From Naegleria gruberi (Eukaryota): DNA of 64,000 bases. Where the stretch lies: assembly GCA_000004985.1 (NCBI GenBank), contig GG738849.1. One strand, given 5' to 3'. Shown here piece after piece: positions 5,655-57,555 of the stretch. Each line of letters starts with the position of its first letter. Position 1 is the stretch's first letter. The notes below the pieces were generated by a model that did not search any database, was not told where the DNA came from, and saw only the letters and a list, made by a program, of their open reading frames with translations. A program made the translations under genes and the position numbers.

Positions 5655-8600
5655 ATGAAGTTGGAAGCACTGCTGAGTGTGGATTTACCATCAGACAAAC
5701 AAATCAGCAAACTCAGATCGGTTAGTTTCCATCCAACACAAAACAAAATTGCTATTGGATTTAGAAAGGAAATTTATGGTATGTAATTTGTGGATGTGAG
5801 GATGAAGAATGTGATTTCAATATTAATTGTCTATGTTGTTGTTGAAAAAAGAGTATGATCTTGGAACAGGGTCTAGGACTGCTCACTTTAAAACAGAGAG
5901 TGAGGTAACACATATTGCTCACTCTAATACTCATCCGGCAATTGTTTCTGCATTACAAAATGGATGTTTTAGTGTTCTTGATCTAAATACAAATACACTG
6001 ACTGCTTTCCATATTCCTGTCCGAAGAGAGGAAGCAAGAAGTGCATCATTCTTTGCCCTGTCCAATAAGAGACCAATGATTTTCTATGCAAGAACTCCTT
6101 CAAAATTATCACGTGAAAGAACCAATATTGTTTTTGGTATTGAAATGTTTTCCGATTCAAAACATAGAGTTGAGTATAGTCATAAGAAACAAATCACAGC
6201 AATTACTACACATCCTTGTAAATCTTTGATGGCATCAGCAAGTCAAGATGGTGTTATTAAAGTATGGGAGACTGAACAACATAATTTATTATTTCAAATT
6301 GATGGTAAGTTTTTATTATTGATGATTTTAGGATTGAATTTGTGATAATATAGAATTTGAAGCAAACAAAAAGGAAAGAGAAGCTGTTACTAGCTTGTGT
6401 TTTTATAATAGTGGAAGAATAGTGATTATGACATTTTAATTTCTGGAACAAGAGAAGGATCAATCAAAGTATGGTATTTACCAAGTACAACATCACCTCA
6501 ACAACCACGTGTTGTTGGTTATGTCACTACTGATGAATGGATCACATCAATTTTAATCCATCCAAATTTACCATGTCTTTTCTATTTGAACGCTAAAGGA
6601 TGTTTAAATTCTATTGACATTGGATCAATTATTTATTCAACAACTGGTGGACCAAAGATGAAGACATTATTGACAGAATTTGAAATGTTAGATCCATACT
6701 ATGTTGCTTTGCACAGAACAAAGGATACCAAAAAGAGATTAATTCCTATCATTAATGCTACAATCCATCCAAAGACTGGTAATATTGCATTTTACGTAAG
6801 TTTCTTTTTTAAACATTTGTTGTTTATTATTATATTCATAACAAATCAAATAGGGCAAAAATTTCCAAATTTCTGAACTAAATGCAAGAGTCATCAAAGG
6901 AACTATTGTTGCTGATAGATTCCCAATATTTTCTGCTTTTGATTTTGGAAATCCTGGAAGCATGTTACCACATCCTTCTGTTATTAATTCCAATCTCGAA
7001 ATGTTATTGTCCTCTAAAAAACAACAAACCTCTAACGAACTTGTTGCCAATGTGGACTCTTTGGATTATCAAATACCCTTCAATACTATTCCTTATGTTG
7101 ACAGTAGATCTAGACCTCCTCACAATACAGTTTTGTCTTTTGATTTGAAGAAGGAAGTTGCTCAAGTACTTGTTGGATCTTTGAGAGCTACACAAGATTT
7201 GTATCCCTTTTATAGATGCACCAAATCTAATTTCAGTCCTAATAGAAAATCAGTATTGATGTTCTATGAAAAATTACTCAACTCTTCAAATACTTATGAG
7301 AGTGATAACTCTAAATTTTTCTTCTCCAAAGTAGATGATATTTACTCGGGAGGCAAGGATAAAGTCGTATTGCAACTTCAAAAGGGTATTGATGGAGGAT
7401 TTTTGGGAGATTCTAACAAGGATTATGTTGTCCTTTCAGAAGGAGGTGATGTTCTCAAGGTTTACACAAACAATGAGCTTCAAAGTGATATCAAATTGAA
7501 CCGTAAAGTCAAGTCATTATCAACTTGTCCATTCGATAGATCAATTATTTACTGTACAGCCAATAACGAATTAAGTTTAGCCACCTCTATTGAAGACAAG
7601 ACAGAAAACAGACTCCAAATTGACAATAACAAAATTTTCCACCTCAGAGGAAACGAAACACTTATTGATATTCAATGGCAAAGAGAACCATTGTGTAATG
7701 AGGCCTGTTTAGTTGGTGTAATTACTTCTAGAAGAGTTATCATCCTTTCCAAAAATATGGATATGCTTTCATCTGTTGAAGCTTCCAGCCAAATTTCATT
7801 CCAATTCCAATCTATTCTCTGGGTAGGAACAGTACTCCTCTACAATTCTAAAAACTTTATTCACTGTCTTCATCCATATGGATCTACCAATAATTCTAGT
7901 GCCTACATTGGTACATTGGATCATTCTGAATCAGTGTTGTGCGCCACTTTATGTGACAGAGTTTACTTTGTCTCACACAAAGATAGAACCCCAACAATTT
8001 CCTATCGTTATTTGAACATTGTAGAACCTTTGCTTTTGGGTATTTTATCAATTCCAAAAGAAAAGCTTTCTGATGAACAAAGAGGCGATCTTTTAAGAAA
8101 GGTTACCGAAAGATTTGATTGTAGAAATGTTTCTGAAAAAACCTTGTACTTTTTGGAGAGACAAGGTTTCCCTCACTTAGCATCCGAGCTTGTTACAAAC
8201 AGTTTGTTTAACTTTTCATGGGAGTTGAGATTAAGATTGGCTAAGAGTTCAATGAACTTTTCTTATGCCTTGAAGGTTTTGGTTTCTCAATATGAAGAAG
8301 AGTCTCATGATCGTACTGGATTTATTTCTAAGAATTCAAAGTTCTACACACATTTTGTAGATCTTGCCAAATCTTCTTTAGAATATGGTCAATTTTCTGT
8401 TGCTCTCAAATGTTTTGATATGATCAATGATGTTTGGGGATTATTTAATTTATTCACAACTACAAATAATGCCAATGGCTTGAAGCTATTAGCACTTAGA
8501 TGTAGAGATTCACCTGATTTTTATTCAATTTATACAGCTTGTGCTCTATTGATTGGACCTGAAGTGATTGAAGATTTCATAAGAAGTTATGATATCACCA

Positions 8601-10072: not shown

Positions 10073-11911
10073 TTATACATTGCTATCTCTTATCAAACTC
10101 ATTTTCTTCAATAGTTCACACTCAAACCAATACCTTGTTCTAAGGTAGAACATGTATCGGATATCTAACCATTTCCAATCACAATATCTGTGAATGATTA
10201 CTACATTGTCAGAATATCTTTGATCATTTTTTGCATACTTTTTAAATTGAGAGTATGACAAATTAACAAATGGTGAAAGATTGTGCTCAAGATCCATGGC
10301 ATGTTGGAACATTTCATCCACTCGATCAATTTCCATAGTTTCTTCCAATCTTTCTCTAATTTCATCCTCAGAGGTTGCAGGTGGTCTGTTGATAGTTTTG
10401 GATTCGAAAAAATTGGCTATCCATCCAATAGTTCTAATTGACATTTCCACCTCAAAATCTCTTTTTGGTATAATTAATGCATTTCTCTGACTGTTCAATA
10501 AATATTCAGCACGAGCTTGGTCGCTCACAATAATTTCATTAAATGCCACTCTTACTCTTGCAAAGCAATATCCAATAATTATGCAAATGAAAACCAATGC
10601 AAAAATAGTTAGCTCAGAATAAAATCCATTATTATATTCAATGGATGGAATAAATGCTTTCAAAACTGCTAGCATGGATGTTATGGACAAAATAAATAAA
10701 GAACTGAATATCATTATACAGGCAACAATATTCATAGCCGTCTTGTACCACGAGACAAAAAGTATGCTCACCGACAATACTATCAAGACAAGGAAAAAGT
10801 CCACAAACATTGCAATGACAATCATAATAGGGTGAGTAAACATGCTATGAACAAAGCATGAAACAAAACATGAAAAGTATAAAATCATATCCAATCTCGA
10901 GTTACTCTTTGCACACATGTTTCCCAGATCAAATCTCCACTCGTAACAATGTATCAGATAAACATATGAAACAATCATGAATGGAAAGACCAATAATAAG
11001 CTTGGAATTAATATAAATACATTTAGAGATTGGATTGAATTGAAAAATCCAAGACTCACTGGAATAACCATTGCAGGTAATAATTCCACTAAATTAAATA
11101 ATAACCAAAAAGCCACAACTCTCTTCCTTTCATTTCTTTGTTTGAATATAATCATCTGAGGATGATCTTGAATATTTTCATAAGAATCCACTTCTCTGGT
11201 TCCTTTCAAAAATTGATATGATTTCCAAGATTTGTAAAAGCAAAAACCAGTCAAAATTAACAGTGTCAGAGTAACAAATGTTGCAAATAGGAATGGTACT
11301 AAAAGTGTTCCCACAAAATCCGAGTCATCATCCCACAAATAAGAAATCTTTAAATTTCCAATCACTGACAGGTATTTGAAATATTTTACATTTGATCGAT
11401 GCCATGGCAGATGAAAATCCGTGAACAATGTAATCCACTGAGCCAGTAATATAAAATGGCACACCAATGACACCATTCCCTTATTTGAATGTTTGAAAAT
11501 CTTGCCAAATAATCGTTCTTTCAAAGAAGACACGTTTCGTTTCGAGTGTGTTGATGGAGTTGGCATCTTTTCCAAATCATCATCATTTCCAAAATACAAA
11601 TACAATTCATAAAAGAAGTAATACAATCCCTTTTCTCTATCCTTCAAAGATAATTGTGGATATAATTTCTCATAACAAACATCATGATCAGACAATACAC
11701 TTGCCGATGATACAATATTAGGAATTATTCTCGTGGTTGTTGTTGTTGTTGTAGATATTTGTTGTTGTTGCTGCTGATGATTATCTCCTCCTCCATTGGA
11801 TACGATCAAACGAGTAGCCATCTGTTGTTGCTGTTGTGTGTTACTATTGCTATTCATCATCTGGGTCGCAGATAAATATTGTTGCTCCTCCTGTGGATGA
11901 TTCGTAGACAT
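10073..11911 (-). CDS. Polytopic membrane protein (at least 8 predicted TM helices) with a Gln/Thr-rich N-terminus; family unknown.
   Basis: 612-aa ORF; multiple hydrophobic 20-25 aa segments; poly-Q and poly-T N-terminal tract. Confidence 0.5.
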   Translation of the reverse strand: MSTNHPQEEQQYLSATQMMNSNSNTQQQQQMATRLIVSNGGGDNHQQQQQQISTTTTTTTRIIPNIVSSASVLSDHDVCYEKLYPQLSLKDREKGLYYFFYELYLYFGNDDDLEKMPTPSTHSKRNVSSLKERLFGKIFKHSNKGMVSLVCHFILLAQWITLFTDFHLPWHRSNVKYFKYLSVIGNLKISYLWDDDSDFVGTLLVPFLFATFVTLTLLILTGFCFYKSWKSYQFLKGTREVDSYENIQDHPQMIIFKQRNERKRVVAFWLLFNLVELLPAMVIPVSLGFFNSIQSLNVFILIPSLLLVFPFMIVSYVYLIHCYEWRFDLGNMCAKSNSRLDMILYFSCFVSCFVHSMFTHPIMIVIAMFVDFFLVLIVLSVSILFVSWYKTAMNIVACIMIFSSLFILSITSMLAVLKAFIPSIEYNNGFYSELTIFALVFICIIIGYCFARVRVAFNEIIVSDQARAEYLLNSQRNALIIPKRDFEVEMSIRTIGWIANFFESKTINRPPATSEDEIRERLEETMEIDRVDEMFQHAMDLEHNLSPFVNLSYSQFKKYAKNDQRYSDNVVIIHRYCDWKWLDIRYMFYLRTRYWFECELLKKMSLIRDSNV

Positions 11912-12075
11912 TTTTTCTTGGAGAGTTTTTGGAAAGGCGCCACATTACAATTCAATAAACAAATAAATTGGTTGTGAATATTGGAATATTGATAAATGTA
12001 GGCAAGAAAGACTGTAATGAAGGGAACATTTGAGGTAATAATCAGCAATAGAGTCATGACGATGAGAGAGTGAAT

Positions 12076-13878
12076 TTATTGTTGATCGACTTGGTCATAG
12101 AGAAGAGAGTGAATGAGGGAAGGAATGGAAGTTTTTGATTCTTGAGCTTGGAGGGAAAGGAGATTGGCCAGCTCTGGATCTTTTTGGAGGTGAGTGAACA
12201 TGCTGGTGGCTCTAATGTTTTCCAATTGAATGTTGTAATAGATGTGGATGTATTCAGTGTTGAAAGAGGAGAGGATGAGGACCAGTTCATTATTGTGTCG
12301 GGGAGTGAGCGAAAATTTTCCACAATAACAATTGGCTAGTTGGTTTTTGAAATTGTAGGTCACGATATTCTTCTCGTGGTCGAGAATGTAAATGATACCA
12401 TCCCATGATGTTATCAGTAATTGAGAATTTTGAGAGGATGTAATGAAATTGTGCGCACTGAGGGAGAGAATTTCATGTTCAATATTGACAAAATAGTCGT
12501 AATATTGATGATAGTTTTGCTTAGTGATGGTATAGTTGGGTGCGTGAACGATGGTGCCTTTCGTGGAGAGGATCTCTTCTGTAATGTTGAATTGTTTGAA
12601 TGGATCGATTACTATGACTTCTCCGCTCAATCCTGAGAGGGCTACACATTGATTTTCTCCAAATTTCACATTACCAACCACTGTGAGAGGTTCATTCTTG
12701 AAATTAATATGTTTTGGTTCAATAATTATTACAGTATCTATTGATGAAATAATTCCAAAACCTCCTGATACAAATCCTAATATTATCGAATCATTGTGAA
12801 TGGAAATACTATTAACTTGATTATCCTTCGTGTAAATTTCCTTCAAAAAAACAAAATCGACTCCATTTTGCTTTTCCATAAATTTGTAAACAAAGAGGTT
12901 TCTATTATTTCCTCCAAAAATGATTTCCTCAACTCCATCCTTATCAATATCAAAACTAATTGCACAATTAATATTACATGGAATCCTCGAAGTTAAAAAT
13001 GGAAGAATTGCCTCACTTCTATTTCTTGAATTAATGTGAACTGTTGGTTGATGGAATTGTGCAGTCGGTGGAGATGGACTTCTTGAAGGTGGCACAAAAT
13101 TGCCCTGTTCAGTTGGTGTTATAGGTGTAGTATCAAGTGATGTCTTACTCGAATATGAAGAAGGTATATGCAATGGTGTTGGTATATCTTGTCCAGTTCC
13201 CAATGATGACAACATATCATGAAAAGGATTCGATTGACTATCAGCAGTCATGGAACTATCATAACTATTCACACTGATATTATCATTTTCCATAGTGTAG
13301 GGATGATTCGTATTAAAGGTAGTTTGACTTTCCACACTTTGTGCATCATCAAAACAATTACTAAGAGTTGTCGATGGACGTTCTGTGAATTTGAAAAAGT
13401 GTACTTCTCCCTCAGCACAAATAACAATTAAAATTGGCATTGCCTCCCAACATCCACACGATGAAGCAGGTAATTTTCCATAAATTATTGCTGAAATCTA
13501 AATTCATTCCGAAATTAATCATATTCAACAATTAATCCAAAATAAATAAATTATTCATAATCATAATAAATTAAAGTCAATATTCATAATAATAATAATT
13601 ATAAATAATAAATTATATTACCAATATATATCCAAATCAATTCAAATAAAACCCACCGTTCCTAAATTAACACAAACATATTTCGGATACTTGTATTGAA
13701 TAAATTGATAAATACACAATGTTCCGTTAATATTTCCAATCACCAATTCTCTCAAACCATCTCCATCAACGTCTTCCAAGAGAATGGCATTCTGAGCAAG
13801 GCTTGTTTTTTGATCAAAGTACAAATCATGCGAATCGACAAAGGAAACTTGTCTCAGCGTCGGATGTTGTTGAATCAT
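12076..13878 (-). CDS. ITFG2: ITFG2-like FG-GAP/beta-propeller protein (KICSTOR subunit ortholog). Exons 13657..13878 and 12076..13497.
   Basis: N-terminus ...NAILLEDVDGDGLRELVIGNINGTLCIY matches the ITFG2 motif [26 protein letters not shown]. ...ITSWDGIIYILDHEKNIVTYNF matches [20 protein letters not shown]. C-terminal ...SLLYDQ tail. Donor gtgggt, acceptor AG, phase 0. Confidence 0.6.
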
Positions 13879-29224: not shown

Positions 29225-30552
29225 TCAAACTTGTTGCTCATCTTCCACAACAATTTCAACACATGTGTATGATTCATCCACATTTGACTTATCCTTCGCC
29301 TTGAAATCTCTCATTTCTGAAATCATTTCATTAATGGATCGATTGACTGGAGCTCCAGTTTCTAATTCTTGACTTATTGGACCACTTTCGACACTAACAG
29401 CAGCTCTTGGAGATTCCTTTTTCTGAGACGAAACACTCATCCTTCTAAACATAGTTTGAACTTGATAAAGTGGCGAATAAATTGCTAATAGAAAGCAAAC
29501 TAAACAAACATATCCAATATTATAAAACCCATGAAAAATCACCGTGCAGTAGGGCCACAACAATGAAAATGGAATGAACACAAACCCACAAAACTGAATA
29601 ATCATTGAAATTGTAATTCCATATTGTAAAAGAGTTGCATTTCGAAGTGCCTTCTTTTTCATTTGTAAACTCGATTCCAAACTCTTATCAGTTGCATTCT
29701 GATTGTTGAGAGTTTTTCTGAGGGAGTCTACTCGATCTCTGGCGATTTTGAGATTTTTCCTTAATAATCGTCCGGAATAGTTTAGGATAATGGAAAAGAT
29801 GGTTATGGAAATGAGGAAAAGGAGTGAGGCGAAGACCATGAGGCCTATTAAGAGATTGGATAGAAGGGATTCGTCCACTAGTTTGAAAGCTGAGGCGAAA
29901 CCGAATAAGAGACATAAACTAGCTGAAAGAAATACAAAGAGGGAAATGGCTATAAGAAATATAATGACCGTGATTCTAATTCTTTTGAAAGTCTTTTTTG
30001 TAACATTTCCTGTTGATTCGGAAGTTTTAAAACTGTTTCGAATAAATTGTTTATTGTAAAATTACAATTCATTGACTGAAAAACTTACAAAACCATTGAA
30101 ATATGCGCCATTATCAGAATAGACAGTAAAACTCCCAAATTATTACAAACTCTACCAATTCCCTTCATTATCGAAGAAGAAACCAACACGGCATTCGAAT
30201 CACTTATCAAATACAATAATTCATTTGCCTCCCTCACCCACATGTTCAAATTTACAATCGCCAATAAGACAATCAATAATCCGAATAGTATATGTTGATT
30301 CCTCGCCAAATATTTATATTGAATTGCATAATTTATCACAACAATTAAGAAGAGGAAAGCAAACACCAATACGAACGGTGCACTCATTCCGAGGGTGATT
30401 TGTCTGAAGAGTGAGAATTGTCCAATATTACTAGCAGCACCTGCTGATGAAGTTACATTACTGTTGGTTGTGTTGCTAAGTAAAGATGTCGTTATGTGTT
30501 GCAGGAGAAGCAAGTTTCGCGTTGTTGATAAGAGATGAAGTTGTTGTTCCAT
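29225..30552 (-). CDS. Seven-transmembrane (GPCR-like topology) membrane protein. Exons 30089..30552 and 29225..30032, with a 56-nt intron at 30033..30088.
   Basis: The two track ORFs (29225..29878 and 30085..30810) join through a gtaagt...aacag intron in phase 2 to give one protein of about 420 aa with seven hydrophobic helices and a cytoplasmic C-tail. Start taken as MEQQLHLL (ATG 30552). The 5' part of the 30085..30810 track ORF is an artefact that overlaps the tRNA. Confidence 0.55.
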
Positions 30553-30715
30553 TGTTTTACAGATAAAAGCGAAATGAGTTATCTCAACCAAAAAGCAGAA
30601 CTTTCTATCATGGGTGAGTTTCATATGAATGTTGTTAGCATCGTATCTCTCCCGAAATGATATTATACGAATGAGTAGAATGGGTGGCAAGATTTCGAAT
30701 CTGTGGCTTAACAGC

Positions 30716-30723
30716 CAAAAGAT
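30716..30723 (-). terminator. Pol III terminator T-run immediately 3' of tRNA-Thr.
   Basis: Minus-strand ATCTTTTGG directly after the tRNA 3' end. Confidence 0.55.
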
Positions 30724-30797
30724 TGCCTCCCTTGGGAATCGAACCCAAGACCTCTGTCTTACTAGGACAGCGCTACTGCCAACTGAGCTAGGAAGGC
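30724..30797 (-). tRNA. tRNA-Thr, anticodon AGT (AGU); no encoded CCA.
   Basis: Minus-strand GCCTTCCTAGCTCAGTTGGCAGTAGCGCTGTCCTAGTAAGACAGAGGTCTTGGGTTCGATTCCCAAGGGAGGCA. 7-bp acceptor stem, anticodon stem CTGTC/GACAG with loop CTAGTAA, T-arm GGTTCGATTCC, and A/B box-like elements. Confidence 0.85.
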
Positions 30798-30890
30798 TTA
30801 CGGTAAGCATATAAAACGCCTTAATATCAATCTAATAAGAGCTATTGTTCTAATAATAGTCTGTGGTTTACAGATAACACAAAAGAAAAA

Positions 30891-33970: not shown

Positions 33971-35599
33971 TTACAGCTTGGAAGTTTTGAATGGAGCATT
34001 TGGAGTTTCTATTACTTTGAAAACACCCTTATCCTCATTCAAGCATTCCATTTCAGTATCCCTAATTTGGTTGGACCAAATCATTGGTTTACCGGTGCAA
34101 TCTCTTACATCCAAAAACAAGTTATGTTCCTCTTCATCTGGATTTGAGGATGGTTGAGGCGGAAGGAGAAGGAATCTTGCAACTGGATCAGTTTCTGGAT
34201 TCACCTTCTTGATGAATTTCATATTATCTTGAAGTGTATAATACAAGGAAGCATATGAAATGCTATCCAAATCAGAGTATCTCTTTAAGAGATATTTATA
34301 CATTGATCCACCGTGAGTAGCAAAGACCAAATTGACTAATTTGGTATCCACATTGCCACACATTTGTGGTAAGATCTTTTGAGTGAGTGAATTAATGATA
34401 GATTCACACTGAGATTCTGTTAGTTTCTTGTTACAGTTAGTTGTATGACTGGTATTGTATACAACAAATGCAGGCATTTGAGCCTTTGTCTTTTGGTCGA
34501 CTGAATATTTAGCTCTCCAAAGTTGGAAAGTGACTTGATTTTGAGGATCTACAAAACAACCAGCAAAATTTGGATGGTAGTACAATTTTTCGAGTTGAGT
34601 AATCAAAAAGTTTGCCTTCCCATACACTCTTTCCATCAAAGTCTTGTACTCTTCCAAAGAAACTAATTGAGCAGATTGATCAGAAGCAGCATTTGATTCT
34701 TCAACTTCGTTAATTTGCTTTTGTGTGCGAATCAATTCCTTATTTCTGACCTCATCCTTTCCACTAATATTTGTATTGAACCCAAGGAACTTTAACCTGA
34801 ATCGAGATGGAACCATTCCACTCTTTGAAATATAAGACAAACTCTTTGCGTTGTCAGCAAAAACATGAGCATAACAATATCTGATACCAAGTTGGTACAT
34901 TAACAGAATTTTCATGTACCAAGCAGAGAATTTCACATCAGCACCATGATCTCTGTACTTTTTGTTACACCACCCAGAACCAGCCAAACCAACTTTGTAT
35001 TCCTTACCATCAATGTATTGAGTTTTGACAGAGAAGGCTATTGTTCCTCCTGGAATGTAACGTGGTGGTTTTGTTGGATGTTCCTTGGCATAATCTTCGT
35101 CGAGTACTTTTACATTGAGGACAAAGTGAGAACGATCTTTGTTTTGAGATGTGATGGTTGGTTTTTGTGGTTGTTCTGGGTTTTCAATGAAAGAGAATTG
35201 ACTCCATCTTTCGTATATATTTTCATGGACTTTGAGCATGCTGATAGTATCATGTTGTTTGAAATAGGAAAAGTATTCTTCAAGATCTTCCTTGTTACTA
35301 TCTAGATCTGAGAGTTCTCTCTTGAACCAATCGTCTAGATTCGAATAAATGTCGTCCCTTTCGTTGAGAAGCGATTTAGTGGTTTCAACGTATGACTTAT
35401 CTAATTCATCTTGTGTGAGAATTCTATTCTGATATTTGGCAGCCAAATAATTATCAGGATTCATCAAGGTAAATAAGAAAGCAGCTGGTTGACCATTTGA
35501 ATGTGAAAGAACATTCCACTCCTTGTCTGTTCTTAACACCTGATCTCTCAAGAGCATGGCTGCATGCTTTGGAAATAGCTTGGCTCTCAGAATATCCAT
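33971..35599 (-). CDS. Conserved-looking 542-aa soluble protein of unknown function.
   Basis: Single uninterrupted ORF with normal composition (not low-complexity). I could not assign a family from memory. Confidence 0.5.
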   Translation of the reverse strand: MDILRAKLFPKHAAMLLRDQVLRTDKEWNVLSHSNGQPAAFLFTLMNPDNYLAAKYQNRILTQDELDKSYVETTKSLLNERDDIYSNLDDWFKRELSDLDSNKEDLEEYFSYFKQHDTISMLKVHENIYERWSQFSFIENPEQPQKPTITSQNKDRSHFVLNVKVLDEDYAKEHPTKPPRYIPGGTIAFSVKTQYIDGKEYKVGLAGSGWCNKKYRDHGADVKFSAWYMKILLMYQLGIRYCYAHVFADNAKSLSYISKSGMVPSRFRLKFLGFNTNISGKDEVRNKELIRTQKQINEVEESNAASDQSAQLVSLEEYKTLMERVYGKANFLITQLEKLYYHPNFAGCFVDPQNQVTFQLWRAKYSVDQKTKAQMPAFVVYNTSHTTNCNKKLTESQCESIINSLTQKILPQMCGNVDTKLVNLVFATHGGSMYKYLLKRYSDLDSISYASLYYTLQDNMKFIKKVNPETDPVARFLLLPPQPSSNPDEEEHNLFLDVRDCTGKPMIWSNQIRDTEMECLNEDKGVFKVIETPNAPFKTSKL

Positions 35600-37651: not shown

Positions 37652-40123
37652 ATGCGTCAACATCTCACACGAAAGAATATCGCTTTTGCTGTGATGGGTT
37701 TTCTCATCCTCATTACTCTATTCCAATTCTTTATTGGCAAACATATTGGAAATACGAAACATGACATGAGTATGAAAATTCAACATGTTGCCACAATTCC
37801 CGATCAAAACATACAAAATGAAGTGGTAGTACCACTCAAACAACCAGAAGATGTGGAGGTAGCAGCAGATCATGTGGAAAAGGAGGCAGAAATAGAAACA
37901 AAACCAACAACAGTCGGAGTGGTGGAAAAGAAGGAGGAACAGAAAGTGCAGAAGGTGGTGGAAAAGAAGACGGGACAGAAGAAGGAGGAAAGGAATAGTT
38001 TACTTTCGTCAACCAAAACAACAGCTTCAACCAATGTTGCCTCCACATCATCACAGAAAAAGAAAAAGAATTCTAAACTGAAAAAACAAAAGAAGGAAAA
38101 TACTAAACCTGTAGAAGAAACAAGAAAATCTACAAAACTTCCACCAGTCTACTTTTTATTTATCTGCACTCTCGATAAGGAACAATGTGAAAAACCAAAA
38201 CAACAAAGTTGGAAAGATTCACTCATCAAGTCTTACAATCAAATCTCTTCAACTGCAAAGGATAATGTTGAATCAATTAATTTTGTGATTTTTGGTGGTG
38301 ATTCTAATATTCCATCACTTTTTACACGTGTGGAAACTTCACAAAAGGGCATAGTTCAAAGTGTGAGTGATTTTATTGCCAATTCTATCAAGGACGATAA
38401 TGCAATGATTATTTTCATAACTGATTTGTCCATTCCAGTTTCACATTCCTTCACTGATACGTACTACATGTTGCAAGATTCAATTCTTGTTGGAAGTATT
38501 GTAATTAATGAAAAGAGCGGAAAGATTCTGAACTCGGGTTGGGATTTGAAATTGAGAAGTTGTAAGGGACAAACTACTCATTCAATTGCCTTTACTCCTC
38601 ACATGTATGGCAAAGAGCTTTCTGCATTATTGGAATCCAATGATAGTGATGAGGAAGAAATGGTTGTTTTCATTCCTTCCTTTAATGGAGCATCGATTCT
38701 CAAGCAAACTTGGAAATATTTTGGTGGATTCCAAATGGACTACCGAAAGGATTATATCTTTGATTTCTTGTTAAGAATTCAAGAACACAATCAAGTAGCT
38801 CCAATTATTCCTGAAAATATCGTGAAATCATATGGAAGTGAAAATTATGAAGAATATATCATTTCAGATACTGAACCATGTAGTTTGGATGAGAAAATTT
38901 CCTTCAGAAATGCAGAATCTGAAATCTCCAAACAATACTATGAAAGTACCATGAACTCATTCTTTAACAGATTGGAAGTTAAGAATATTAATCTAATCTA
39001 TACCATTCCAGCTGATTTACCATCACAATCACTTCAACAAATTTCAAATGCAATCAATATTGAGGGTAAAATTATTCTCAAACTCAACACAACTCTGAGC
39101 GGAATTCACGTGAGTGAGAGTGATAGAATTGCATTCAATAGAATGAAGAATATTGTTCACTCTGATGCGAACATTCCTCTCGTTAATATTGTTCCATTTG
39201 ATCCTAATTGGAATTGTCCTAGAAAACAATACTGCATTGGACTGTTTATGAGTGATATTAAACAGATTAAACAAGAAGATGTCAACAAGATGAAGCAACA
39301 ATATGATGAAATATGGGTCTCTGAGCAACGACATGCCAAGTTATTGAAACGAATGGGGATTAAGAAGAGCAAAACTCAATTCATTCCAAATGGAGTTGAT
39401 ACTTTGGCATTCAAACAGGATGAAAACAAGAATGCTCCAACCAATTACTTGTCCGTGTTTTCAGATTGGGAAAAGGAAAGGTAATTAGTTTAATTATTTT
39501 ATTTAATTCTTATTTCAATAATAGAAACCAAATCAAATTATTGGTAGAATCATTTGCCACAAGTTTTGATCAAGTATCCAATGTCAAGTTGACCATTTTT
39601 ATTCAAGATTTTACATCTGCTTCCAATGATAAGACCTCTCAGGAAATTATCAAGCAATTGGGAATTGAAACTGTCTTTACCAAACCACCATCAATTGAAA
39701 TATTACCTTTAGATGCAAGAAAAGTAGAGCTTCCATCATTCTATCGTGATTATCATGTATTACTTGTAAGTTTTTCACAAAACAATCTCAAATTTTAATA
39801 TCAAATTGCAGATATTAACTGAAAATCAAAGTGCAAGACTCGTCATGCAAGCCATGTCATCAGGCCTCTTAATTGTTTCTCCAGGAGGAGAATTATTCGA
39901 ATTCCTCAATAAGGATAATAGCTTAATTATCAAGCAAGCCAAATCAGTGGAATCATGGATTGAAACACTCAAATATATTCATTCAGAGGGTAATCTTTCA
40001 CTCATACATGAATTATGTAAAGTAGCTCGTCTCGACATGGTCGAATATTATGATAATACTGTAATTGCCAAGGATATTTTATCTAGATTAGGAGATATTG
40101 AGGAATTTATGAATGCTCATTAA
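37652..40123 (+). CDS. Type II membrane glycosyltransferase with a large lumenal N-terminal region and a C-terminal GT4 (glycosyl transferase group 1) domain. Exons 37652..39480, 39525..39765 and 39812..40123.
   Basis: N-terminal TM (AFAVMGFLILITLFQFFIG), a K/E-rich stalk, and a C-terminal ...ARLVMQAMSSGLLIVSPGGELFEFL resembling the GT4 EGFG...EAMA.G.PVI motif. gtaatt/gtaagt donors, AG acceptors. Confidence 0.55.
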
Positions 40124-40256
40124 TTTATGTTTTACACTCTATATTTTGTATTATTAAGATCAATGATAATCGAGTTGATTAAAATTCGAAAGAAGAAATT
40201 TTATTAAGAAATTATAAAAATTAATTGGCGCCAAAATATTTATAACTACAAAAAAA

Positions 40257-41102
40257 ATGACTGATTTATTATCAACCCTCAATTCCGACACTGTTCTCTA
40301 CAAGACCATGAAGACAACAACAACAACAACAAACAATATGGATGAGACAATTTTGGAGGAGAAGGAAAGAGTGTATGGATATTTGAAGGGAACCAATGAT
40401 GCTCATTATGTTTTGGAGAAGAAAAAGATAGTGATTGGAAAAGATCCCGATAAATGTGATATTGTATTACATAATGGAAAGACTATATCGCCTGAACATG
40501 CCAGGATTGAATTTAGAAAGACTGCAACTTCATACACTTGTATGATTACTGATTTACAGTCACAGAATGGTACATTGGTGAATGATAAACGATTGTTTTT
40601 GGATAGTGTCACAAAACAGTTACATCATGGAGATAGAATTCGATTTGGATTTGATCAGACATTTTATACGATTGAGTTTCTTTATGAGGAGGAACAACCA
40701 AACAAAAATTCAACAGATGAGAGAGGATTTGTTGGAATACTCAATCCAAATTTCAAACCAGGAAAATCTAGGAGAAGTAAATCAGCTGAAAAGTCTCTAT
40801 CAAGGCCTAAAGCTGAACCTTCTAAAGAATACAAAGAAAAATTGGAAAAGCAACAACAGGAATTCAAAAGCTTACTTGAAAAGAGGAGGAGCGAAAAAAA
40901 GAGGGCGGAAAAAGATCCAAAAGATCCTTCCACAATAACCTTTCAAACAGCAACAGGATCAAAAACTGTCTCTCTAAATGATCTTCAGGAAAGTGATGAG
41001 GAAGGTATTGAGGATGATTTTATTCCACAAGAAACAATTAAGGAAACCATATCAATAGCAAAACCAACTGTGGACTCCAAGACAAACTCTCCCAAATTAT
41101 GA
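40257..41102 (+). CDS. FHA-domain protein (forkhead-associated phosphopeptide-binding domain) with a basic/acidic K/E-rich tail.
   Basis: ...IVIGKDPDKCDIVLHNGKTISPEHARIEF...SQNGTLVNDKRL...HGDRIRFG is a canonical FHA core (GR...H, SxNGT, N..r). Confidence 0.6.
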   Translation: MTDLLSTLNSDTVLYKTMKTTTTTTNNMDETILEEKERVYGYLKGTNDAHYVLEKKKIVIGKDPDKCDIVLHNGKTISPEHARIEFRKTATSYTCMITDLQSQNGTLVNDKRLFLDSVTKQLHHGDRIRFGFDQTFYTIEFLYEEEQPNKNSTDERGFVGILNPNFKPGKSRRSKSAEKSLSRPKAEPSKEYKEKLEKQQQEFKSLLEKRRSEKKRAEKDPKDPSTITFQTATGSKTVSLNDLQESDEEGIEDDFIPQETIKETISIAKPTVDSKTNSPKL

Positions 41103-41235
41103 TATTCTTTCATCTCGAATTGAGAATATTGAAAAAACTATTTATACAGAACAAAAGAATGAGGAACAGGAATTTTATCATTTAAATCTATTGGTAAACA
41201 GCGTACATTTATTGTCTTACAAGTTGTTAAACGAG

Positions 41236-42549
41236 ATGGGACATCAGGATAAAACTAGTAGCGACGCCCATGACGAAGATGACACTCTAGGCCAAAGCAA
41301 AACAGTGAGGGAAATAATGACTGAAAAATTGAAGGATGTGAAAGGAATTCTGACAGCTTGTATTGGGAGAGTGAATGTTGTCGATAGAGAAAAGGAACGA
41401 ACAATGAAAGAAAAGGAAAATTTAAGAAGCCAAGCTTTGGAAAGATACGCAACAGAATTACAAGTAGAGCTGGATACAATACGATTCGAGTTTGAGAGAA
41501 AGAATATGTTGGTGGAAGAGTTAAAACGACAATCCCTCGACAGGAAAAAGGATCAAGATACGATCAAGACTCTTAGGGAGTGTTTAGAATTCAAAGATGC
41601 TGAAATGAGAGAATTGCAAAGTCAACTAGCTTCTAATTCCTTGATTGGATATAACAGTGAGGCTGCTAAATCGAGAATGCAAAATTTGATAGCTACATTA
41701 ATGAAAGACACGGAAGAATGCAAGAGAAGAAATATGGAATCACAACATAGGCTCGAAAAGAGACTGCTCGAATGGCAACAAGTGAAGGAAGAAAACAAAA
41801 AGCTAAGATTTAGAGTTTCTGACCTTCAAGAAACAATTCACAGACAAATGAACGATCTTCACATCTCTTTAATGCATAAAGAGCAAAAATTGAATGCTTG
41901 GAAGTCTAAAGTCGCAGAGTTGGCTTCTGATAATAACGAAATGCGATATAGAGCTGCGGGCTTTTTACTTTCTCTAGTGAGTGAACAAGATAATAGAGAT
42001 ACAGAACTATTATTGAAATATGAGGAAACTAAGAGAAATCTACACTTTTCTCAAATGGAAAATAACGAGCTTCGATTGGAAATTCAAAATTTGAAAGATG
42101 TCCTCCAATACACAGATGTACATACAACCAAACAAACAATGGACATGTTAAGAGATAAGATACACCAAATGGAAATTGAATGCTCAGTAGATAGAGTTCT
42201 GGAATACCAGAACACCATAACCAATCTAAGTTCCAAAGTTTCAGAATACGAGAGAATGCAAGGTCTCTATATCCAAGAATTTAGTAGATTGAAAAAGTTG
42301 AATACTAAATTCAATGAGGGAGCATGTATTGGAACATTGGAACGTAAAATTCAACTCTACGAAAAGAAGATTGAGAGTTTGGAAAAACACATTGACCAAG
42401 CTTTTGTGGAAAGAGAGTCTGCCATTTCACCAATTCTGCCCTCCTCACAGATGCAATTGTTGAACCCTTCAAATCCATTAAGTGCTATTCAACGAGTTGA
42501 GCTGAAAGAAACTACTCCAAATATCATACCAAAACCTCTTTCTTCCTAG
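41236..42549 (+). CDS. Coiled-coil protein; may be the C-terminal part of the upstream FHA gene (SLMAP/FHAD1-like FHA+coiled-coil architecture), see findings.
   Basis: Continuous heptad-rich ORF. This frame is already open from 41059, overlapping the end of the FHA ORF. The first ATG is MGHQDK at 41236. Confidence 0.45.
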   Translation: MGHQDKTSSDAHDEDDTLGQSKTVREIMTEKLKDVKGILTACIGRVNVVDREKERTMKEKENLRSQALERYATELQVELDTIRFEFERKNMLVEELKRQSLDRKKDQDTIKTLRECLEFKDAEMRELQSQLASNSLIGYNSEAAKSRMQNLIATLMKDTEECKRRNMESQHRLEKRLLEWQQVKEENKKLRFRVSDLQETIHRQMNDLHISLMHKEQKLNAWKSKVAELASDNNEMRYRAAGFLLSLVSEQDNRDTELLLKYEETKRNLHFSQMENNELRLEIQNLKDVLQYTDVHTTKQTMDMLRDKIHQMEIECSVDRVLEYQNTITNLSSKVSEYERMQGLYIQEFSRLKKLNTKFNEGACIGTLERKIQLYEKKIESLEKHIDQAFVERESAISPILPSSQMQLLNPSNPLSAIQRVELKETTPNIIPKPLSS

Positions 42550-42728
42550 AAGGTCATCAAAAGGTGACTTGAGAGCTGTCATTGAACAAACCCAACAGAG
42601 TGAAATAGCTCAACAAGAAACAAAAGAAACATTACCAGTATTGGAAAAGAAACCATCCAAAACGAATATAATTCCAGTTGAGGAAGTAAATAATAGTATA
42701 ATTACAGATCAATAAATAAAATATTTAA

Positions 42729-43712
42729 TTACATCTTTTTTCTAGCAAGAATACCTTGTTTTATCCTCTTGATATGATTTTTCTCTTCGATATTATATTG
42801 TGACAAAGTGGCATCGTCCAATTGTAAAATTTGTAATCTTTGATCCTCACTCATATTATCTATAATATTAATGATATCATTATCAATGTATGCATTTTGA
42901 TTTTGTGGTTGTCTTTGAGCCATCCTAGGATCTCTTGGATCACTTCTAGGATCAACTCTTGAATCTCTAGGATCACTTCTAGGATCACCTCTTGGATCAC
43001 TAAATGGTTGATTATGTTGTGGTGGTGGAGGTTGATTCATAGGTTGTCTCATCATATTTTGTGGTGGTGGTTGATTGAAAGGTTGATCTACCATTCCTAG
43101 GATGTATTGGATGTGTAATAATACTACAGAAAGGGTTGGGTTTTGTGCCAAAATATTCTTTGCTAATTCCGGATTTGTTTGAACCAAATCTCTCATTTCC
43201 ACAAGACAATCATATAATTGTTGTTTTGAAATTTGGTTTAAAGCTTCCATTACTGGATCTTGATTAGAATCTGTCATTTGATCATAATTTTGCATTCCAA
43301 CATTTTGATTCATCATTGGATTATTAGAATAAGAATTTAATCTAGGATCACTTCTTGATGATGATGATGATGGCATTGGTGGAGGAGGTTGATTCATAGG
43401 CATTGAATTTCCCATCGATTCTCCTTCCCCAGGCATATTAATTTTGTTATTATCAGCAAAATCAACACGAAGTTTTCTTCCGTTAAAATCCCTTCCATCC
43501 AATGTTTTCATAGCATTACTAGCACTACCTTCATCAATAAATTCACAAAAAGCATATCCCTTAGGTTTGTTAGTTTCCCTATCGAAAACCATACGAAAAT
43601 TAACAACTTGTCCAGCCTCGTTAAATATTTGTTTTAATTTATCGGTAGAGGCATCATAGGCAATATTACCAATGAATACACAACGTGATGGTGTTCGGTT
43701 GGTTTTGCTCAT
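42729..43712 (-). CDS. CSTF2: Cleavage stimulation factor subunit 2 (CstF-64): N-terminal RRM, hinge domain, degenerate repeat region, conserved C-terminal domain.
   Basis: RRM RCVFIGNIAYDASTDKLKQIF...KGYAFCEF. Hinge ...ALNQISKQQLYDCLVEMRDLVQTNPELAKNILAQNPTLSVVLLHIQYILGMV. DPRSDPR-type repeats. C-terminus ...EDQRLQILQLDDATLSQ... Confidence 0.75.
   Translation of the reverse strand: MSKTNRTPSRCVFIGNIAYDASTDKLKQIFNEAGQVVNFRMVFDRETNKPKGYAFCEFIDEGSASNAMKTLDGRDFNGRKLRVDFADNNKINMPGEGESMGNSMPMNQPPPPMPSSSSSRSDPRLNSYSNNPMMNQNVGMQNYDQMTDSNQDPVMEALNQISKQQLYDCLVEMRDLVQTNPELAKNILAQNPTLSVVLLHIQYILGMVDQPFNQPPPQNMMRQPMNQPPPPQHNQPFSDPRGDPRSDPRDSRVDPRSDPRDPRMAQRQPQNQNAYIDNDIINIIDNMSEDQRLQILQLDDATLSQYNIEEKNHIKRIKQGILARKKM
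42886..43010 (-). repeat. Coding pentapeptide-like repeats (DPRSDPRDSRVDPRSDPRDPR) inside CstF-64.
   Basis: Tandem gatcc(a/t)agaagtgatcc units read directly on the minus strand. Confidence 0.6.
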
Positions 43713-53008: not shown

Positions 53009-56000
53009 ATGTCTCAAAAACATCAACAGCATCAACAACCTCTCGCTCAAATTTCCATTCCCAGCAAATCGACACTCTACGCAACAGCCATCAAACAAAA
53101 TTCATCATCATCAAGAAATCCGAATATTGGCCAAAATGTTGCTGCTTCTTCTTCTTCATCATCAATTGTTGTAACACCTTCCACTCCATCAACTCCTTCA
53201 GCAAGTCCGAATTCATCAGCATCATCACTTGTTTTATCGGTGAGACCACTCTCTATTAATCAATGTGAATTGTCTAGTAGTAGTAGCTGTGGTAGTATTG
53301 GAGGAGTAGTTGGAGGAGGAGTTGGAGATTGTTTAAAAGAATTAATTAAACAATCGTCAATGAAATCAAATTCTTCGGTTTATGAAAATAATTACAAAAA
53401 GTTGGAAAATGATTTAAATGATATTTCATTTCTTGATTTGATTGAATGTAAATTGAATTGGTTGAAGGAAAAGAAGTTTTTTGATCATTATAATATATGT
53501 CAGGTTGTGGATTTAGTGTCAATGCCTCATTTGGATTCACATTTCAAGTACAAGACAAAGATTAGATTTTCCAGTGATGAATCGTCGAGTAATGTAGTGT
53601 TTGATCCATTTACTTGCTTTTTTGTGAGTTTGGAGAATAGAACTACACTTAGGAATGAAGTGGATTTTTGTAAAAAAGAAGGAAAGAGAGTGAGTGATGA
53701 TAGAGTTTACAAAATTGCTTCTCAATTGATGAGTACTGTACATTTTATGCACATGTTTGGGATTTTTCACACCATGTTATGTCCTGAATTGATTTGTATA
53801 GCTGATAATGTAGGTTTTTTATTGGAATAATTGATCATTTAATTCGAATTATAGGGTGATATCAAAGTGAAAGATGCCTTTTATTATCATATGGTTGTTT
53901 GGATTAATTCATCCCTTCAGACTCCCAATGTCTTCTTGAAGGAAGCTCGAGATTTTGAATTGTTTGTTCCATATTTGGCTCCTGAATTGTTTTCTTTGGC
54001 TTGCTATGAGGAGAATTATTTTCAAGATGTAAATAACAAGTGCGATATCTGGTCAATTGGTGTAATTTTATTGGAATTTATTTTAGGTAATAGAATACCA
54101 TTTCCTACACGTTTAGATACTAAGGATAAAACAAAAGAGGAATGGATTGAGTCGGCAATGAATATTTATTTGGATATTTTTGATTTTGTAGATTATTGTA
54201 AATATAGGGAGAATGTAGAAGAAACTGAAACTGAAACTCCAGACGATGCCAAATATAAGAATGCATGGAAGAGAATTCAAAGATTGGACAAATCACTCAG
54301 AGATTTATTATTCCACTGTTTGGCATTCAGACCAAGTGAAAGACCTGATATGGATTGGCTCATTGAGCAACCTTATTTCCAAACCATTTCAAAGGAACGA
54401 TTGGCTCACTACTCGTATAGAATTGCCAAATATCCACACCTGAAGAGTTTGGATGAAAAACCTCTAATTACCAATAAGAAGGAAGTTTCCATCACCTCTG
54501 GTACTCTCTCACCACTCCAGGAAAGACAAAACATGTTCAAGCAAAAGTACTTTGATTGGAAAAAGCTCTACGATGGAAAAATTAGTATATTCGATTTGTT
54601 TTACAGGAGAATATTTGACATGTCCATTGTACCTCACTTTTTCAGATATAATAAGAATTGTCCAGGTGATAAACTTCACATGAGCTATGCCAGCATCTCA
54701 CAAGCTCATGTCGATAGTTACCTATTGATTCCAATGAGCTACCTCGAGGAAGCTCTCACTCACATCAAACTCTACAATAATGATGCTCTGGGAATTAGAT
54801 CTGATACACCCGAAACACCAATCGACTCTCCAACAACAGTGGATGATCGATTGTATCCCTCACTCGTTCACGTCTCTGGTGATATTGGAAAGAAGAGAAG
54901 TCTCTACAATAAGGAAAACATTATGAATGGAAATACCAATACTTGGAATAGATTTTCTGCACTCATCACTGAGAAGGATATGAACTTTGCCTATCAGCAA
55001 AAGAGAGTTCACACCTTTAGAAAATTACTTCTCAGTTATCCATCGAGTAGGGAGGAGATTATCAGAGAGGCCAAGATTGATATTCCCTCAATTCTTAGAG
55101 GAGAAGTTTGGGCTGCCATCTTGGGAGTTGAAGAAGATTTGAAAGCTGAGGATATTTATACTAAAATTCTATTCGAATTACAAAAGCAACCACTCTCAAA
55201 TGTTACAAAACGACAAATTGGAGTAGATGTGCCCAGATGTCACCAATATAATCCACTTCTCCATTCCAAGATTGGTCATGAAAAATTGAGGAAAGTTCTC
55301 GAAGCATGGGTCTATTATCATAAGAATGAAGGACTCGTTTATTGGCAAGGTCTGGATTCATTGTGTGCTCCTCTCCTTGTGTTGAATTTTGACTTTGAAG
55401 CAAAGGCATTCTGTTGCCTTAAAGCCCTCGTCAATAAGTATACTCACGATTTTTTCACATCGAGAGCCAACTCAACTGCCATGGAAGAGAGATTGTCAGT
55501 ATTTAAAAAGTTGCACATGTATCATGATCCAGAGGTTGCCTCTCATTTGCATCACATTTCATTCCTTCCAGAATTGTATGCTATCAGTTGGTTCCTCACA
55601 CTCTTTGCTCACTCATTGCCAATTGAAAAATTATTCAAATTGTGGGATGCTCTCATTCTTGGAACACCTGAATTACCTGTTTTCATTGCAGTTGCCATTC
55701 TCAAACAAATGAGAAATAAGATTCTCGAATCGGATTTCAACAGTGCCATGTATCTATTCCAGAATATTCAAGGTGTTGACATTATTCAAGTATTGGACGA
55801 TACGAGAAGAATTCAAGAAAAGTCTCCAAGTGGTCTCACCAATCCAAAATTCTTCCAATCCAATCATTCTTTCCGTATCTCAATTGATGATTACAATAGA
55901 GAGTGTTTCTATCCGAGAATTACATTGGAAGATTTTGAAAATTCAACACTTTCGTCCATTTCTTTCATTGTGGACATTCGACCAATTGAGGATTACAAAC

Positions 56001-56347
56001 TAGATCACTATCCTTCAGCCAACCACATTTCCACTTTTATTTCCAACGATGAAGAATCACTCAATCTCTCTGCAAACAACCTATTCCAACACAATCTCAC
56101 TCAACTCACAACTGAACTCAACTTTAAGAAAGGTCTTGCCATCGTTGTAATGGCCCATTTGAATCAAACAGATCAATTACTCCAATTAGAACATGCCTTA
56201 ATGTTAGAATCGATACCATACGTTTCTATAGTCCTATTACATCCTCCAGAAAGTAGCGAATCATTGTCAACAGAGTACTCTGATCCAATCAGAGAACAAA
56301 CTCAAAATTCTGAACAAATTGCAATTGTTCAAGAAATTGGAAATTAA
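53009..56347 (+). CDS. TBCK: TBC domain-containing kinase-like protein: pseudokinase-like N-terminal region, Rab-GAP TBC domain, C-terminal rhodanese-like domain. Exons about 53009..53809 and 53855..56347.
   Basis: Kinase-like region (HTMLCPELI..., APELFSLACYEE..., DIWSIGVILLEFILG). TBC motifs IGVDVPRCH (IxxDxxR) and YWQGLDSLCAPLL (YxQ). Rhodanese-like IVDIRPIEDYKLDHYPSANHI. gtaggt...atag intron in phase 0. Confidence 0.7.
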
Positions 56348-56361
56348 ATTTACAAAAAAAA

Positions 56362-57555
56362 ATGAAACGATTTCAAGCTAGAAAGTTGGGCGCAATTTTT
56401 CCATTTTCTGCTTCTTCTTCTTCCAATAAATTGATAATGAAGAAGGAAATGATGAATAAATTAAATTCAAGTGAGAATTGTGTGATGGCTGCTGTTCCGA
56501 AATTAAATAATAATAGTAGTAATTATCATTATCATTATCATCAGCAGTTGCATTGGATGTTTTGGGAATTAAATAGTGTGCAGGGAAGTGTTAGGAATTA
56601 TGCAAAGAGTTTGAAGAAGAAATCAACAAGTAAAATAATAGTGAATAATCAAAAGTTGATGGAGAAGGAGAGAATAATTGAGGATTCAGTGAATGAGGAG
56701 GAAGAATCAGAGGAGGCCAATGTTGCACCATCAGTGATAATGGATGAAAAGACAATGGATGAAGAAGTGGAAAGGAATTCAAAATTGCAAACTCCACCTG
56801 GTTTGTATATTATTGCCACTCCGATTGGTAATTTGAATGATATTTCAGAGAGGGCTAAATTTGTGTTATCTCAATCGAATATGATTGCTTGTGAAGATAC
56901 GAGAACGACAAGGAAATTACTTCATTTTCATTCGTTGATTTCGGATCCTCCTCAGCAATTGATTAGTTTTGTGGAAAATAAGAATGCATCTGAGGTTTAT
57001 AGTCAATCTAAAAAGCATTTGAGCTTAATTTTGAATCGATTGACTAGCTCAAGTGATGTAGTATCGGTGGTTAGTGAATGTGGAAGTCCTTGTATTTCAG
57101 ATCCTGGTTGGATTCTAGTTAAGAATTGGTATGTGAAATATTTGAAAATTATATTAATTTTAAATAGTCATGAATTAGGAGTTCCTGTTTATTCAGTACC
57201 TGGTCCTAGCTCTATAATTGCAGCATTATCAATTAGTGGTTTCAATAGTAATAGATTTATTTTTGACGGCTTCTTACCAGCCATTCCAAAGAAGAGAAGG
57301 AAGTTGTTACAAGAACTTAGGGAAATACAAGGAAATCGTTGTGTTGTATTCTTTGAAAATCCAAACAGAATTAAGCAAACTTTAGCAGATTGTGTTGAAA
57401 TTTTTGGAGGTGATACACAAATTGCTCTTTGTTTTGAATTAACCAAACTCTTTGAGAGAATTCAAAAGGGAAAACTTTCAACAATTGAACGAGTAATGCG
57501 AAATGAAGATATTAAGGGTGAATGTACGATCATTATTGGCAACAATTCAGAATAG
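56362..57555 (+). CDS. RsmI-type (tetrapyrrole-methylase fold) rRNA 2'-O-methyltransferase with a roughly 150-aa N-terminal extension, probably organellar. Exons 56362..57128 and 57168..57555, with a 39-nt intron.
   Basis: GLYIIATPIGNLNDISERAKFVLSQSNMIACEDTRTTRKLL is the RsmI N-terminal motif. After removing gtatgt...aaatag, the spacing ISDPG-x20-VPGP matches bacterial RsmI. The start codon lies 14 nt after the TBCK stop. Confidence 0.7.
   Translation: MKRFQARKLGAIFPFSASSSSNKLIMKKEMMNKLNSSENCVMAAVPKLNNNSSNYHYHYHQQLHWMFWELNSVQGSVRNYAKSLKKKSTSKIIVNNQKLMEKERIIEDSVNEEEESEEANVAPSVIMDEKTMDEEVERNSKLQTPPGLYIIATPIGNLNDISERAKFVLSQSNMIACEDTRTTRKLLHFHSLISDPPQQLISFVENKNASEVYSQSKKHLSLILNRLTSSSDVVSVVSECGSPCISDPGWILVKNWYVKYLKIILILNSHELGVPVYSVPGPSSIIAALSISGFNSNRFIFDGFLPAIPKKRRKLLQELREIQGNRCVVFFENPNRIKQTLADCVEIFGGDTQIALCFELTKLFERIQKGKLSTIERVMRNEDIKGECTIIIGNNSE

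Follow-up and report, generated by a model that had tools for sequence, protein, structure and literature searches.

A single ancestral FHA-coiled-coil gene split across three reading frames in the Naegleria gruberi NEG-M assembly

Architecture of the locus

In this work we examine a 64,000-nucleotide stretch of the Naegleria gruberi NEG-M genome (contig GG738849.1 of GenBank assembly GCA_000004985.1), hereafter the window, and within it a locus at which an open reading frame (ORF) coding for an FHA domain is followed on the same strand by one coding for a long coiled coil. The window is gene-dense, with a G+C content of 30-38%. Labeling all three reading frames of the locus by coordinate modulo 3 (0, 1 or 2), we found that the FHA ORF ends at 41102 in frame 0 and that frame 1, which carries the coiled coil, is open from 41059, directly after a TAG at 41056-41058, up to the TAG at 42547-42549. 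The frames overlap by 44 nucleotides (nt), and every coordinate that the initial annotation of the region had given holds. The same annotation proposed that the two ORFs represent one gene, rather than two, split by a 1-nt indel or a recent frameshift. A single, frame-broken gene is borne out by the orthologs, all of which are fused, whereas the idea of one 1-nt indel needs revision: there are two breaks, the latter of which amounts to 6 + 2 nt relative to a near-identical strain, and the gene ends at 42715. This further +1 break, at 42544-42548, had not been part of the earlier picture; frame 2 is open from 42506 to 42715 (70 codons) and overlaps the preceding frame by 44 nt as well. The whole gene is composed of three segments of 281, 482 and 55 codons, each in the +1 frame relative to the preceding one (Table 1).

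The translation of 41236-42546 is identical to EFC48864.1/XP_002681608.1, corresponding to the GenBank model NAEGRDRAFT_62928. This model is the middle fragment of an FHA-coiled-coil protein of about 820 residues, and the reference annotation is wrong at this point. Exact-sequence look-ups with the FHA ORF, with the coiled-coil ORF from alternative starts and with several restored fusions recovered no annotated model for the FHA part, NAEGRDRAFT_62928 being the only match; nor did the same look-ups recover an independent NEG-M record of the locus.

Coding potential of the segments and conservation across orthologs

The FHA domain in segment 1 is detected with high significance (Pfam PF00498, residues 58-131; 63.7 bits, where the cutoff is 20.7; E=2.1e-17). 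The segment aligns with the N-terminal parts of its orthologs at 54-57% identity (E=1e-89 to 1e-98), including an invariant block in the FHA core, and its codon usage scores +55/+63 against the two off-frames. The coiled coil shows 67-69% identity to the N. fowleri and N. lovaniensis proteins over about 370-386 residues (E about 1e-179). Segment 3 likewise displays coding-like codon usage (+11.4/+15.6, with -25 to -39 in other frames). Its end (...VEEVNNSIITDQ) aligns with that of the N. fowleri protein (...VEQVKNESIILDQ), and it is read in frame with segment 2 in a contig from the European Nucleotide Archive (ENA), L005, which codes for protein P0014. All three segments are collinear with the orthologs.

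Between the end of segment 1 and the annotated start of the coiled-coil protein lies a stretch, 41101-41235, that the initial annotation had described as a supposed intergenic region of about 130 bp with coding-like composition, a description which further analysis strengthened. Frame 1 has zero stops in the 133 nt 5' of the MGHQDK ATG at 41236, and the chance of 59 codons remaining open is ~0.01 given the ~0.07 stops per codon expected at the local base composition. Codon usage favors frame 1 by +5.6/+10.3 log-likelihood units over the off-frames (other frames -8 to -27). The 45 encoded residues match residues 316-360 of the N. fowleri protein at 62% identity (E=2e-17), and the N. lovaniensis protein and the ENA protein P0003 at 60% each; other frames match nothing. 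This match is collinear, with the FHA match on one side and the coiled-coil match on the other, and in a structure model of the restored protein the stretch forms the first long helix (H282-328). Based on its codon usage, its ortholog match and this predicted helix, we count the 'intergenic' spacer as conserved coding sequence.

A search with the conceptually joined protein recovered orthologs in N. fowleri (FDP41_005898, 849 residues; 57% identity, 96% query coverage), N. lovaniensis (C9374_011419, 852 residues; 62% identity, 84% coverage) and an ENA metagenome (P0003, 824 residues; 55% identity, 85% coverage). Measured against the restored N. gruberi protein, identity amounts to 57% for N. 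fowleri, 56% for N. lovaniensis and 52% for P0003. A profile search added a full-length FHA and coiled-coil protein from Willaertia magna (ABK040_009847, 779 residues) and two further fused members, P0009 and P0012. We examined the DNA of the N. fowleri, N. lovaniensis and P0003 versions, the W. magna ortholog being considered as a protein, and found uninterrupted ORFs in each (N. fowleri L001 6001-8550; N. lovaniensis L004 3001-5559; ENA contig L003 3784-6258). Every ortholog found in these four sources is a single FHA and coiled-coil protein and none is encoded as two separate proteins, the comparison that the initial annotation had recommended as a check. The fused architecture is, on the strength of these sequences, ancestral. 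Furthermore, a convergent CstF64-like gene lies directly downstream in N. fowleri (L001) and N. lovaniensis (L004), as in the window. N. fowleri FDP41_005898 thus has its N. gruberi ortholog in the NEG-M copy, which belongs to the family by descent but is disrupted: N. fowleri and N. lovaniensis each have the gene as one uninterrupted ORF, whereas the NEG-M copy is spread over three frames by two +1 breaks.

An exhaustive profile search yielded 8 cluster representatives below 1e-30, the rest matching the generic FHA domain only. The named members below this threshold come from Naegleria and Willaertia, and the others are metagenome, JGI/IMG or Logan sequences. The family hence looks small, and those of its members that have names are heterolobosean. 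No relatives were among the 587 pattern matches that a scan of JGI metagenomes with the family alignment produced. Negatives from the word-index protein search are weak, as overlapping queries returned non-overlapping subsets: P0007, although 100% identical, escaped the full-length query, as did P0014, and a short query missed P0001-3.

Table 1. Coordinates of the segments, frame breaks and other features of the locus and the window
Feature	Coordinates	Strand	Remarks
Segment 1	40257..41099	+	frame 0, 281 codons; N-terminal region, FHA domain, linker
FHA ORF	40257-41102	+	frame 0; closed by TGA 41100-41102
FHA domain (phosphothreonine-binding)	40428..40649	+	residues 58-131; Pfam PF00498
Frame break 1	41091..41100	+	10-nt window CCCAAATTAT; frame must move +1 inside
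TGA	41100..41102	+	premature stop from frame break 1; ends FHA ORF
Segment 2	41101..42546	+	frame 1, 482 codons; long alpha-helical coiled-coil region
GenBank model NAEGRDRAFT_62928	41236-42546	+	437 residues; 'predicted protein'; on an 850-kb scaffold; starts MGHQDK
Frame break 2	42544..42548	+	net 8-nt loss versus ENA contig L005, a +1 shift
TAG	42547..42549	+	premature stop from frame break 2; ends annotated coiled-coil ORF
Segment 3	42548..42715	+	frame 2; 55-codon disordered C-terminal tail (RRSSKGDL...VEEVNNSIITDQ) and true stop TAA 42713-15
FHA beta-sandwich	residues ~39-142		structure model and alignment
Helix	residues 190-219		structure model and alignment
Conserved beta-hairpin STITFQTATGSKTV	residues 226-239		structure model and alignment
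Long coiled-coil-type helices	residues 282-723		structure model and alignment
Disordered tail	residues 724-818		opens with conserved basic RRxS-type motif
CstF64-like neighbor	42729-43712	-	RRM_1 and CSTF2_hinge (Pfam); convergent, directly downstream
NAEGRDRAFT_46101	12079-13440	-	exact match to window ORF
NAEGRDRAFT_62924	33974-35599	-	exact match to window ORF
Reference intron	2985-3034		GTAAGT...TGCAG
Reference intron	6797-6854		GTAAGT...AATAG
Reference intron	39481-39524		GTAATT...AATAG
Reference intron	39767-39812		GTAAGT...TGCAG
Reference intron	53812-53856		GTAGGT...TATAG

The restored protein and its affinities

The restored protein of about 820 residues is predicted to comprise an N-terminal FHA domain, a coiled coil of ~440 residues and a disordered tail rich in basic residues and serine. 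The structure model is of low confidence (pLDDT 51, from a 4-sequence alignment) and was used for secondary structure only. The N. fowleri, N. lovaniensis and W. magna proteins share the same succession of FHA domain, short helix and beta-hairpin ('STITFQTA.GSKTV'), long coiled coil and disordered tail. By analogy with its domain families, we propose that the protein might function as a dimeric scaffold that binds phosphothreonine ligands via the FHA domain.

The initial annotation had likened this architecture to that of SLMAP and FHAD1. The likeness holds at the level of architecture, in that a long coiled coil follows an N-terminal FHA domain, and does not extend to sequence. In a profile search of the PDB no SLMAP or FHAD1 chain was recovered at E<=0.01, and the best solved-structure match of the FHA domain was the human centrosomal protein of 170 kDa, CEP170 (PDB 4jon, E=5e-8). 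Moreover, unlike SLMAP, the protein has a hydrophilic C-terminal tail (RRSSKGDL...IITDQ) devoid of a tail-anchor transmembrane segment, and the family looks specific to the heteroloboseans. In CEP170, too, the FHA domain is N-terminal; its likeness to the restored protein is confined to this domain, the remainder displaying no detectable relationship, and we take it as a lead without claiming orthology.

Delimiting the two frame breaks

Break 1 is bracketed on the 5' side by AAC TCT in frame 0 (41085-90), which corresponds to AAC TCT (NS) in both N. fowleri and N. lovaniensis, and on the 3' side by GAT in frame 1 (41101), which matches GAC (D) in the same two species. The intervening 10 nt hold short runs of CCC, AAA and TT, and the indel is placed only to within this window; the orthologs read through the position equivalent to the TGA at 41100.

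Break 2 is bracketed by the orthologs between CCA AAA ('PK', 42529-34, frame 1) and AGA AGG ('RR', 42548-53, frame 2), the latter also AGA AGG in N. fowleri. A BLASTN comparison of L005 with the window shows that the contig reads through in frame as CCT CTT TCT AGG ACA TCC TCG AGA AGG TCA (KPLSRTSSRRSS). Relative to it two pieces are missing from NEG-M, 4 nt apart: AGGACA, at the junction of 42543 and 42544, and CG, at that of 42547 and 42548. The loss of AGGACA is frame-neutral and the loss of CG shifts the frame. The site lies in a pyrimidine tract beside a CTCGAG palindrome found in L005. As a strain that mismatches NEG-M at just 5 of 920 aligned bases reads in frame here, break 2 is not conserved, and it is more than a simple one-base miscall.

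With the frame restored, the TAA at 42713-15 lies 13 nt from the stop (42729-31) of the convergent CstF64-like gene. The corresponding distance is also 13 nt in N. lovaniensis and is 46 nt in N. fowleri. Given the 13-nt spacing, the 3' untranslated regions of the two convergent genes must overlap. The coding tail also contains two adjacent predicted hairpins at 42551-42611, of which the first (AGGUCAUC-AAAA-GGUGACUU) starts 1 nt past the TAG at 42547. The fold has a stability of -18.6 kcal/mol (z=-3.2), matched by 0/200 shuffles.

An independently assembled close relative

L005 is a 920-nt contig of the Illumina-based ENA metagenome assembly ERZ929261 whose protein, P0014, has 155 residues. 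It aligns with window positions 41820-42733 with 5 mismatches, and L002, another contig of ERZ929261, matches positions 10848-13566 of the window at 97.7%. Based on these two matches, the sample holds a very close relative of NEG-M that was independently assembled. L005 bears a 2-nt loss of its own at window 42249-51 (L005 429-431; GAATACGAGAGAATG versus GAATA--TGAGAATG), ~300 nt upstream of break 2, which disrupts the conserved SEYERMQGLY and leads to a stop 12 codons on. Owing to this loss, two overlapping ORFs are called on L005. The L005 lesion and NEG-M break 2 can both be written as the loss of CG directly before AGA.

Across about 2.4 kb of neighboring coding sequence, NEG-M and the relative differ by 13 substitutions and one 9-nt in-frame indel, with 0 frame-breaking indels. 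Consequently, both assemblies look sound and the breaks appear specific to the FHA-coiled-coil gene. The 9-nt indel is an (AAC)3 in-frame length polymorphism at 11736-11744, in the ORF 10073-11911(-), and the other indels of that stretch are non-coding. Thus, two near-identical N. gruberi-type genomes bear different frame-breaking indels in the same well-conserved gene while its neighbors are spared, a pattern suggestive of null alleles that are tolerated or of a gene loss just beginning.

Competing explanations

We then weighed the explanations that could account for a gene written in three frames. That the locus holds two (or three) separate genes as annotated, namely one for an FHA-only protein and one for a coiled-coil protein beginning at MGHQDK, is in our estimate quite improbable. 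It would accord with the start of the 437-residue GenBank model at 41236 and with the presence of an ATG of its own in each ORF. However, the 45 conserved codons upstream of that ATG are in the same frame and contain no earlier ATG, the frame overlap leaves no spacer for a promoter or terminator, the orthologs are uniformly fused, and the conserved tail would stay untranslated. Splicing could in principle restore the frame of a single gene. The introns of the window are 44-58 nt long, with GTAAGT, GTAATT or GTAGGT donors and YAG acceptors. Enumerating all GT/GC...AG pairs across both breaks whose length would restore the frame (L = 1 mod 3), we found none that resembles the real introns of N. 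gruberi, in agreement with the remark in the initial annotation that no GTAAGT-type donor links the frames. The sole short GT...AG candidate of this class at break 1, a 55-nt GTGGAC...TTGAG at 41070-41124, was rejected as it would remove S285, which is invariant, together with the matching SSRIE/SERLV residues. At break 2 a 49-nt GCTGAA...CCTAG at 42501-42549 was rejected as it would remove sequence that is translated in frame in L005, where no intron is needed. Although both candidates are close in size to real introns and the second has a good polypyrimidine-YAG acceptor, their donors are unlike the GTA(A/G)(G/T)T of all verified introns in the window and the orthologs are intron-free at both places. 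Hence, unconventional short introns are the least likely of all the explanations considered.

Scarcely more likely, in our view, is that programmed +1 ribosomal frameshifting at both stops, UUA-UGA-U (41097-41103) and UCC-UAG-A (42544-42550), yields the full-length protein. In its favor, both shifts are +1 and can be placed exactly at the 0-frame stops with good ortholog alignment (...SPKL/DILSS and ...PLSS/RRSS), all three segments are open and coding-like, and a stable hairpin follows the TAG. The +1 direction and the 0-frame stop at or beside the shift recall antizyme- or Euplotes-type frameshifting, and UCC-UAG-A resembles the antizyme site, UCC-UGA-U. If true, a heterolobosean would tolerate frameshifts at stop codons much as Euplotes does, which would allow such indels to arise and persist, with the hairpin after the TAG aiding the second shift. 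Unlike in those systems, however, neither site is conserved, even in the near-identical strain: the N. fowleri, N. lovaniensis and P0003 genes are uninterrupted, the W. magna protein is fused, and L005 is in frame at the second site. Moreover, the shift positions are bracketed only to 10 and 13 nt, windows that include the stops. The first site lacks a stimulatory downstream structure (z=+1.1), and Rfam has zero matches in 40000-43000. The break in L005 lies 12 codons from its stop and could not be rescued in this way, and no other gene in the window displays the pattern. In the literature searched there is no report of such frameshifting in Naegleria, frameshifts being mentioned there with regard to assembly curation in other strains or pseudogenized viral capsid genes in other amoeba genomes. 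The strongest of the alternatives, though one we still consider rather unlikely, is that the organism itself has one intact gene, both breaks having entered the draft NEG-M assembly through errors in base calling or in the consensus. The short runs within CCCAAATTAT and the location of break 2 in a pyrimidine tract beside the palindrome of the relative would fit such errors. So would the otherwise perfect preservation of the ORFs, with substitutions relative to L005 that are mostly synonymous, and the lack of confirmation of the breaks by independent NEG-M sequence in the exact look-ups. On the other hand, it calls for two errors 1.45 kb apart, while the same-strand junctions examined in the 64-kb window are otherwise canonical introns or ordinary intergenic gaps, with no other non-intron frame break among them. 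The two-gap loss of 6 + 2 nt at break 2 falls in non-repetitive sequence and is atypical of a base-calling error, and the neighboring genes show no frameshift discrepancies relative to the same strain. Finally, an independently Illumina-assembled relative is also frame-broken in the same gene, which points to biology over chemistry.

Origin and consequences of the breaks

In light of the above, we favor as the probable explanation that one ancestral gene has suffered recent, non-programmed frame-shifting indels, amounting to null allele(s) or incipient gene loss. The ancestral gene spans 40257-42715, and under this proposal two small indels, each +1, would have hit the NEG-M copy, one within 41091-41100 and the other at 42544-42548. 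As written, this copy would give rise to a 281-residue FHA-only product ending at the TGA at 41100. It would represent a null allele, the clonal amoeba being heterozygous or polyploid, or else a very young pseudogene. The sequences show that the ancestry is that of a single gene, where both breaks lie, that introns are absent and that break 2 is not conserved; we infer that true mutations, and not errors in base calling, underlie the breaks and that expression does not bypass them. Naegleria has been described as for the most part diploid and heterozygous, its ploidy being variable (PMC9928731), which would enable null alleles to persist.

Several observations weigh against this proposal. No sequence of the close relative covering break 1 was found in the word-index search, whose negatives are weak. 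Break 1 also lies inside short homopolymer runs, where a draft-assembly error is more credible. Such an error in the NEG-M assembly, though the less likely reading, would concern chiefly this break; the genome was reportedly sequenced to 8x Sanger coverage. Both premature stops lie 0-3 codons from the shift, as stop-codon-dependent +1 frameshifting would predict. As off-frame stops occur at ~1 per 11 codons (44 in 483), a random indel soon followed by a stop is by itself unremarkable, and proximity at both sites would arise by chance in ~5% of cases. Further, 3/4 of the substitutions in the gene between NEG-M and L005 that are not linked to the indels are synonymous. Together with the otherwise stop-free segments, this indicates that the gene was under purifying selection until very recently.

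Unless the unlikely recoding proves true, the locus represents an ordinary case of a gene that is broken or mis-annotated, involving no new mechanism. In practical terms, the restored model is the one to use when this conserved heterolobosean protein is compared across species or studied by proteomics; NAEGRDRAFT_62928 lacks both the FHA part and the tail.

Additional observations in the window

Searches for repeats and inverted repeats around the breaks returned chance-level short matches only. The same-strand gene immediately upstream, 37652-40123, has three exons, the first without a Pfam match, and two canonical short introns (39481-39524 and 39767-39812) which account for its apparent frame changes. 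At 56345-56364, the stop of the ORF 53867-56347 is separated from the next same-strand ATG (56362) by 14 nt (TAAatttacaaaaaaaaATG), representing either a very short spacer or an unrecognized single gene. A tRNA-Thr(AGT) at 30724-30797 (-) sits within the 5' end of the mechanically called ORF 30085-30810(-), and the real start or exon structure of this ORF must therefore differ.

About 20 nt 5' of the ATG of the FHA gene, at 40228-40241, we observed an E2F-like palindrome, TTGGCGCCAAAA. In N. fowleri a comparable element, ATGGCGCCAT, lies about 45 nt 5' of the ortholog's ATG (L001 about 5950-5960), and the similar TTTGGCGC occurs at 987, 14060 and 21395. The presence of such a palindrome in both N. 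gruberi and N. fowleri may point to a cell-cycle promoter element.

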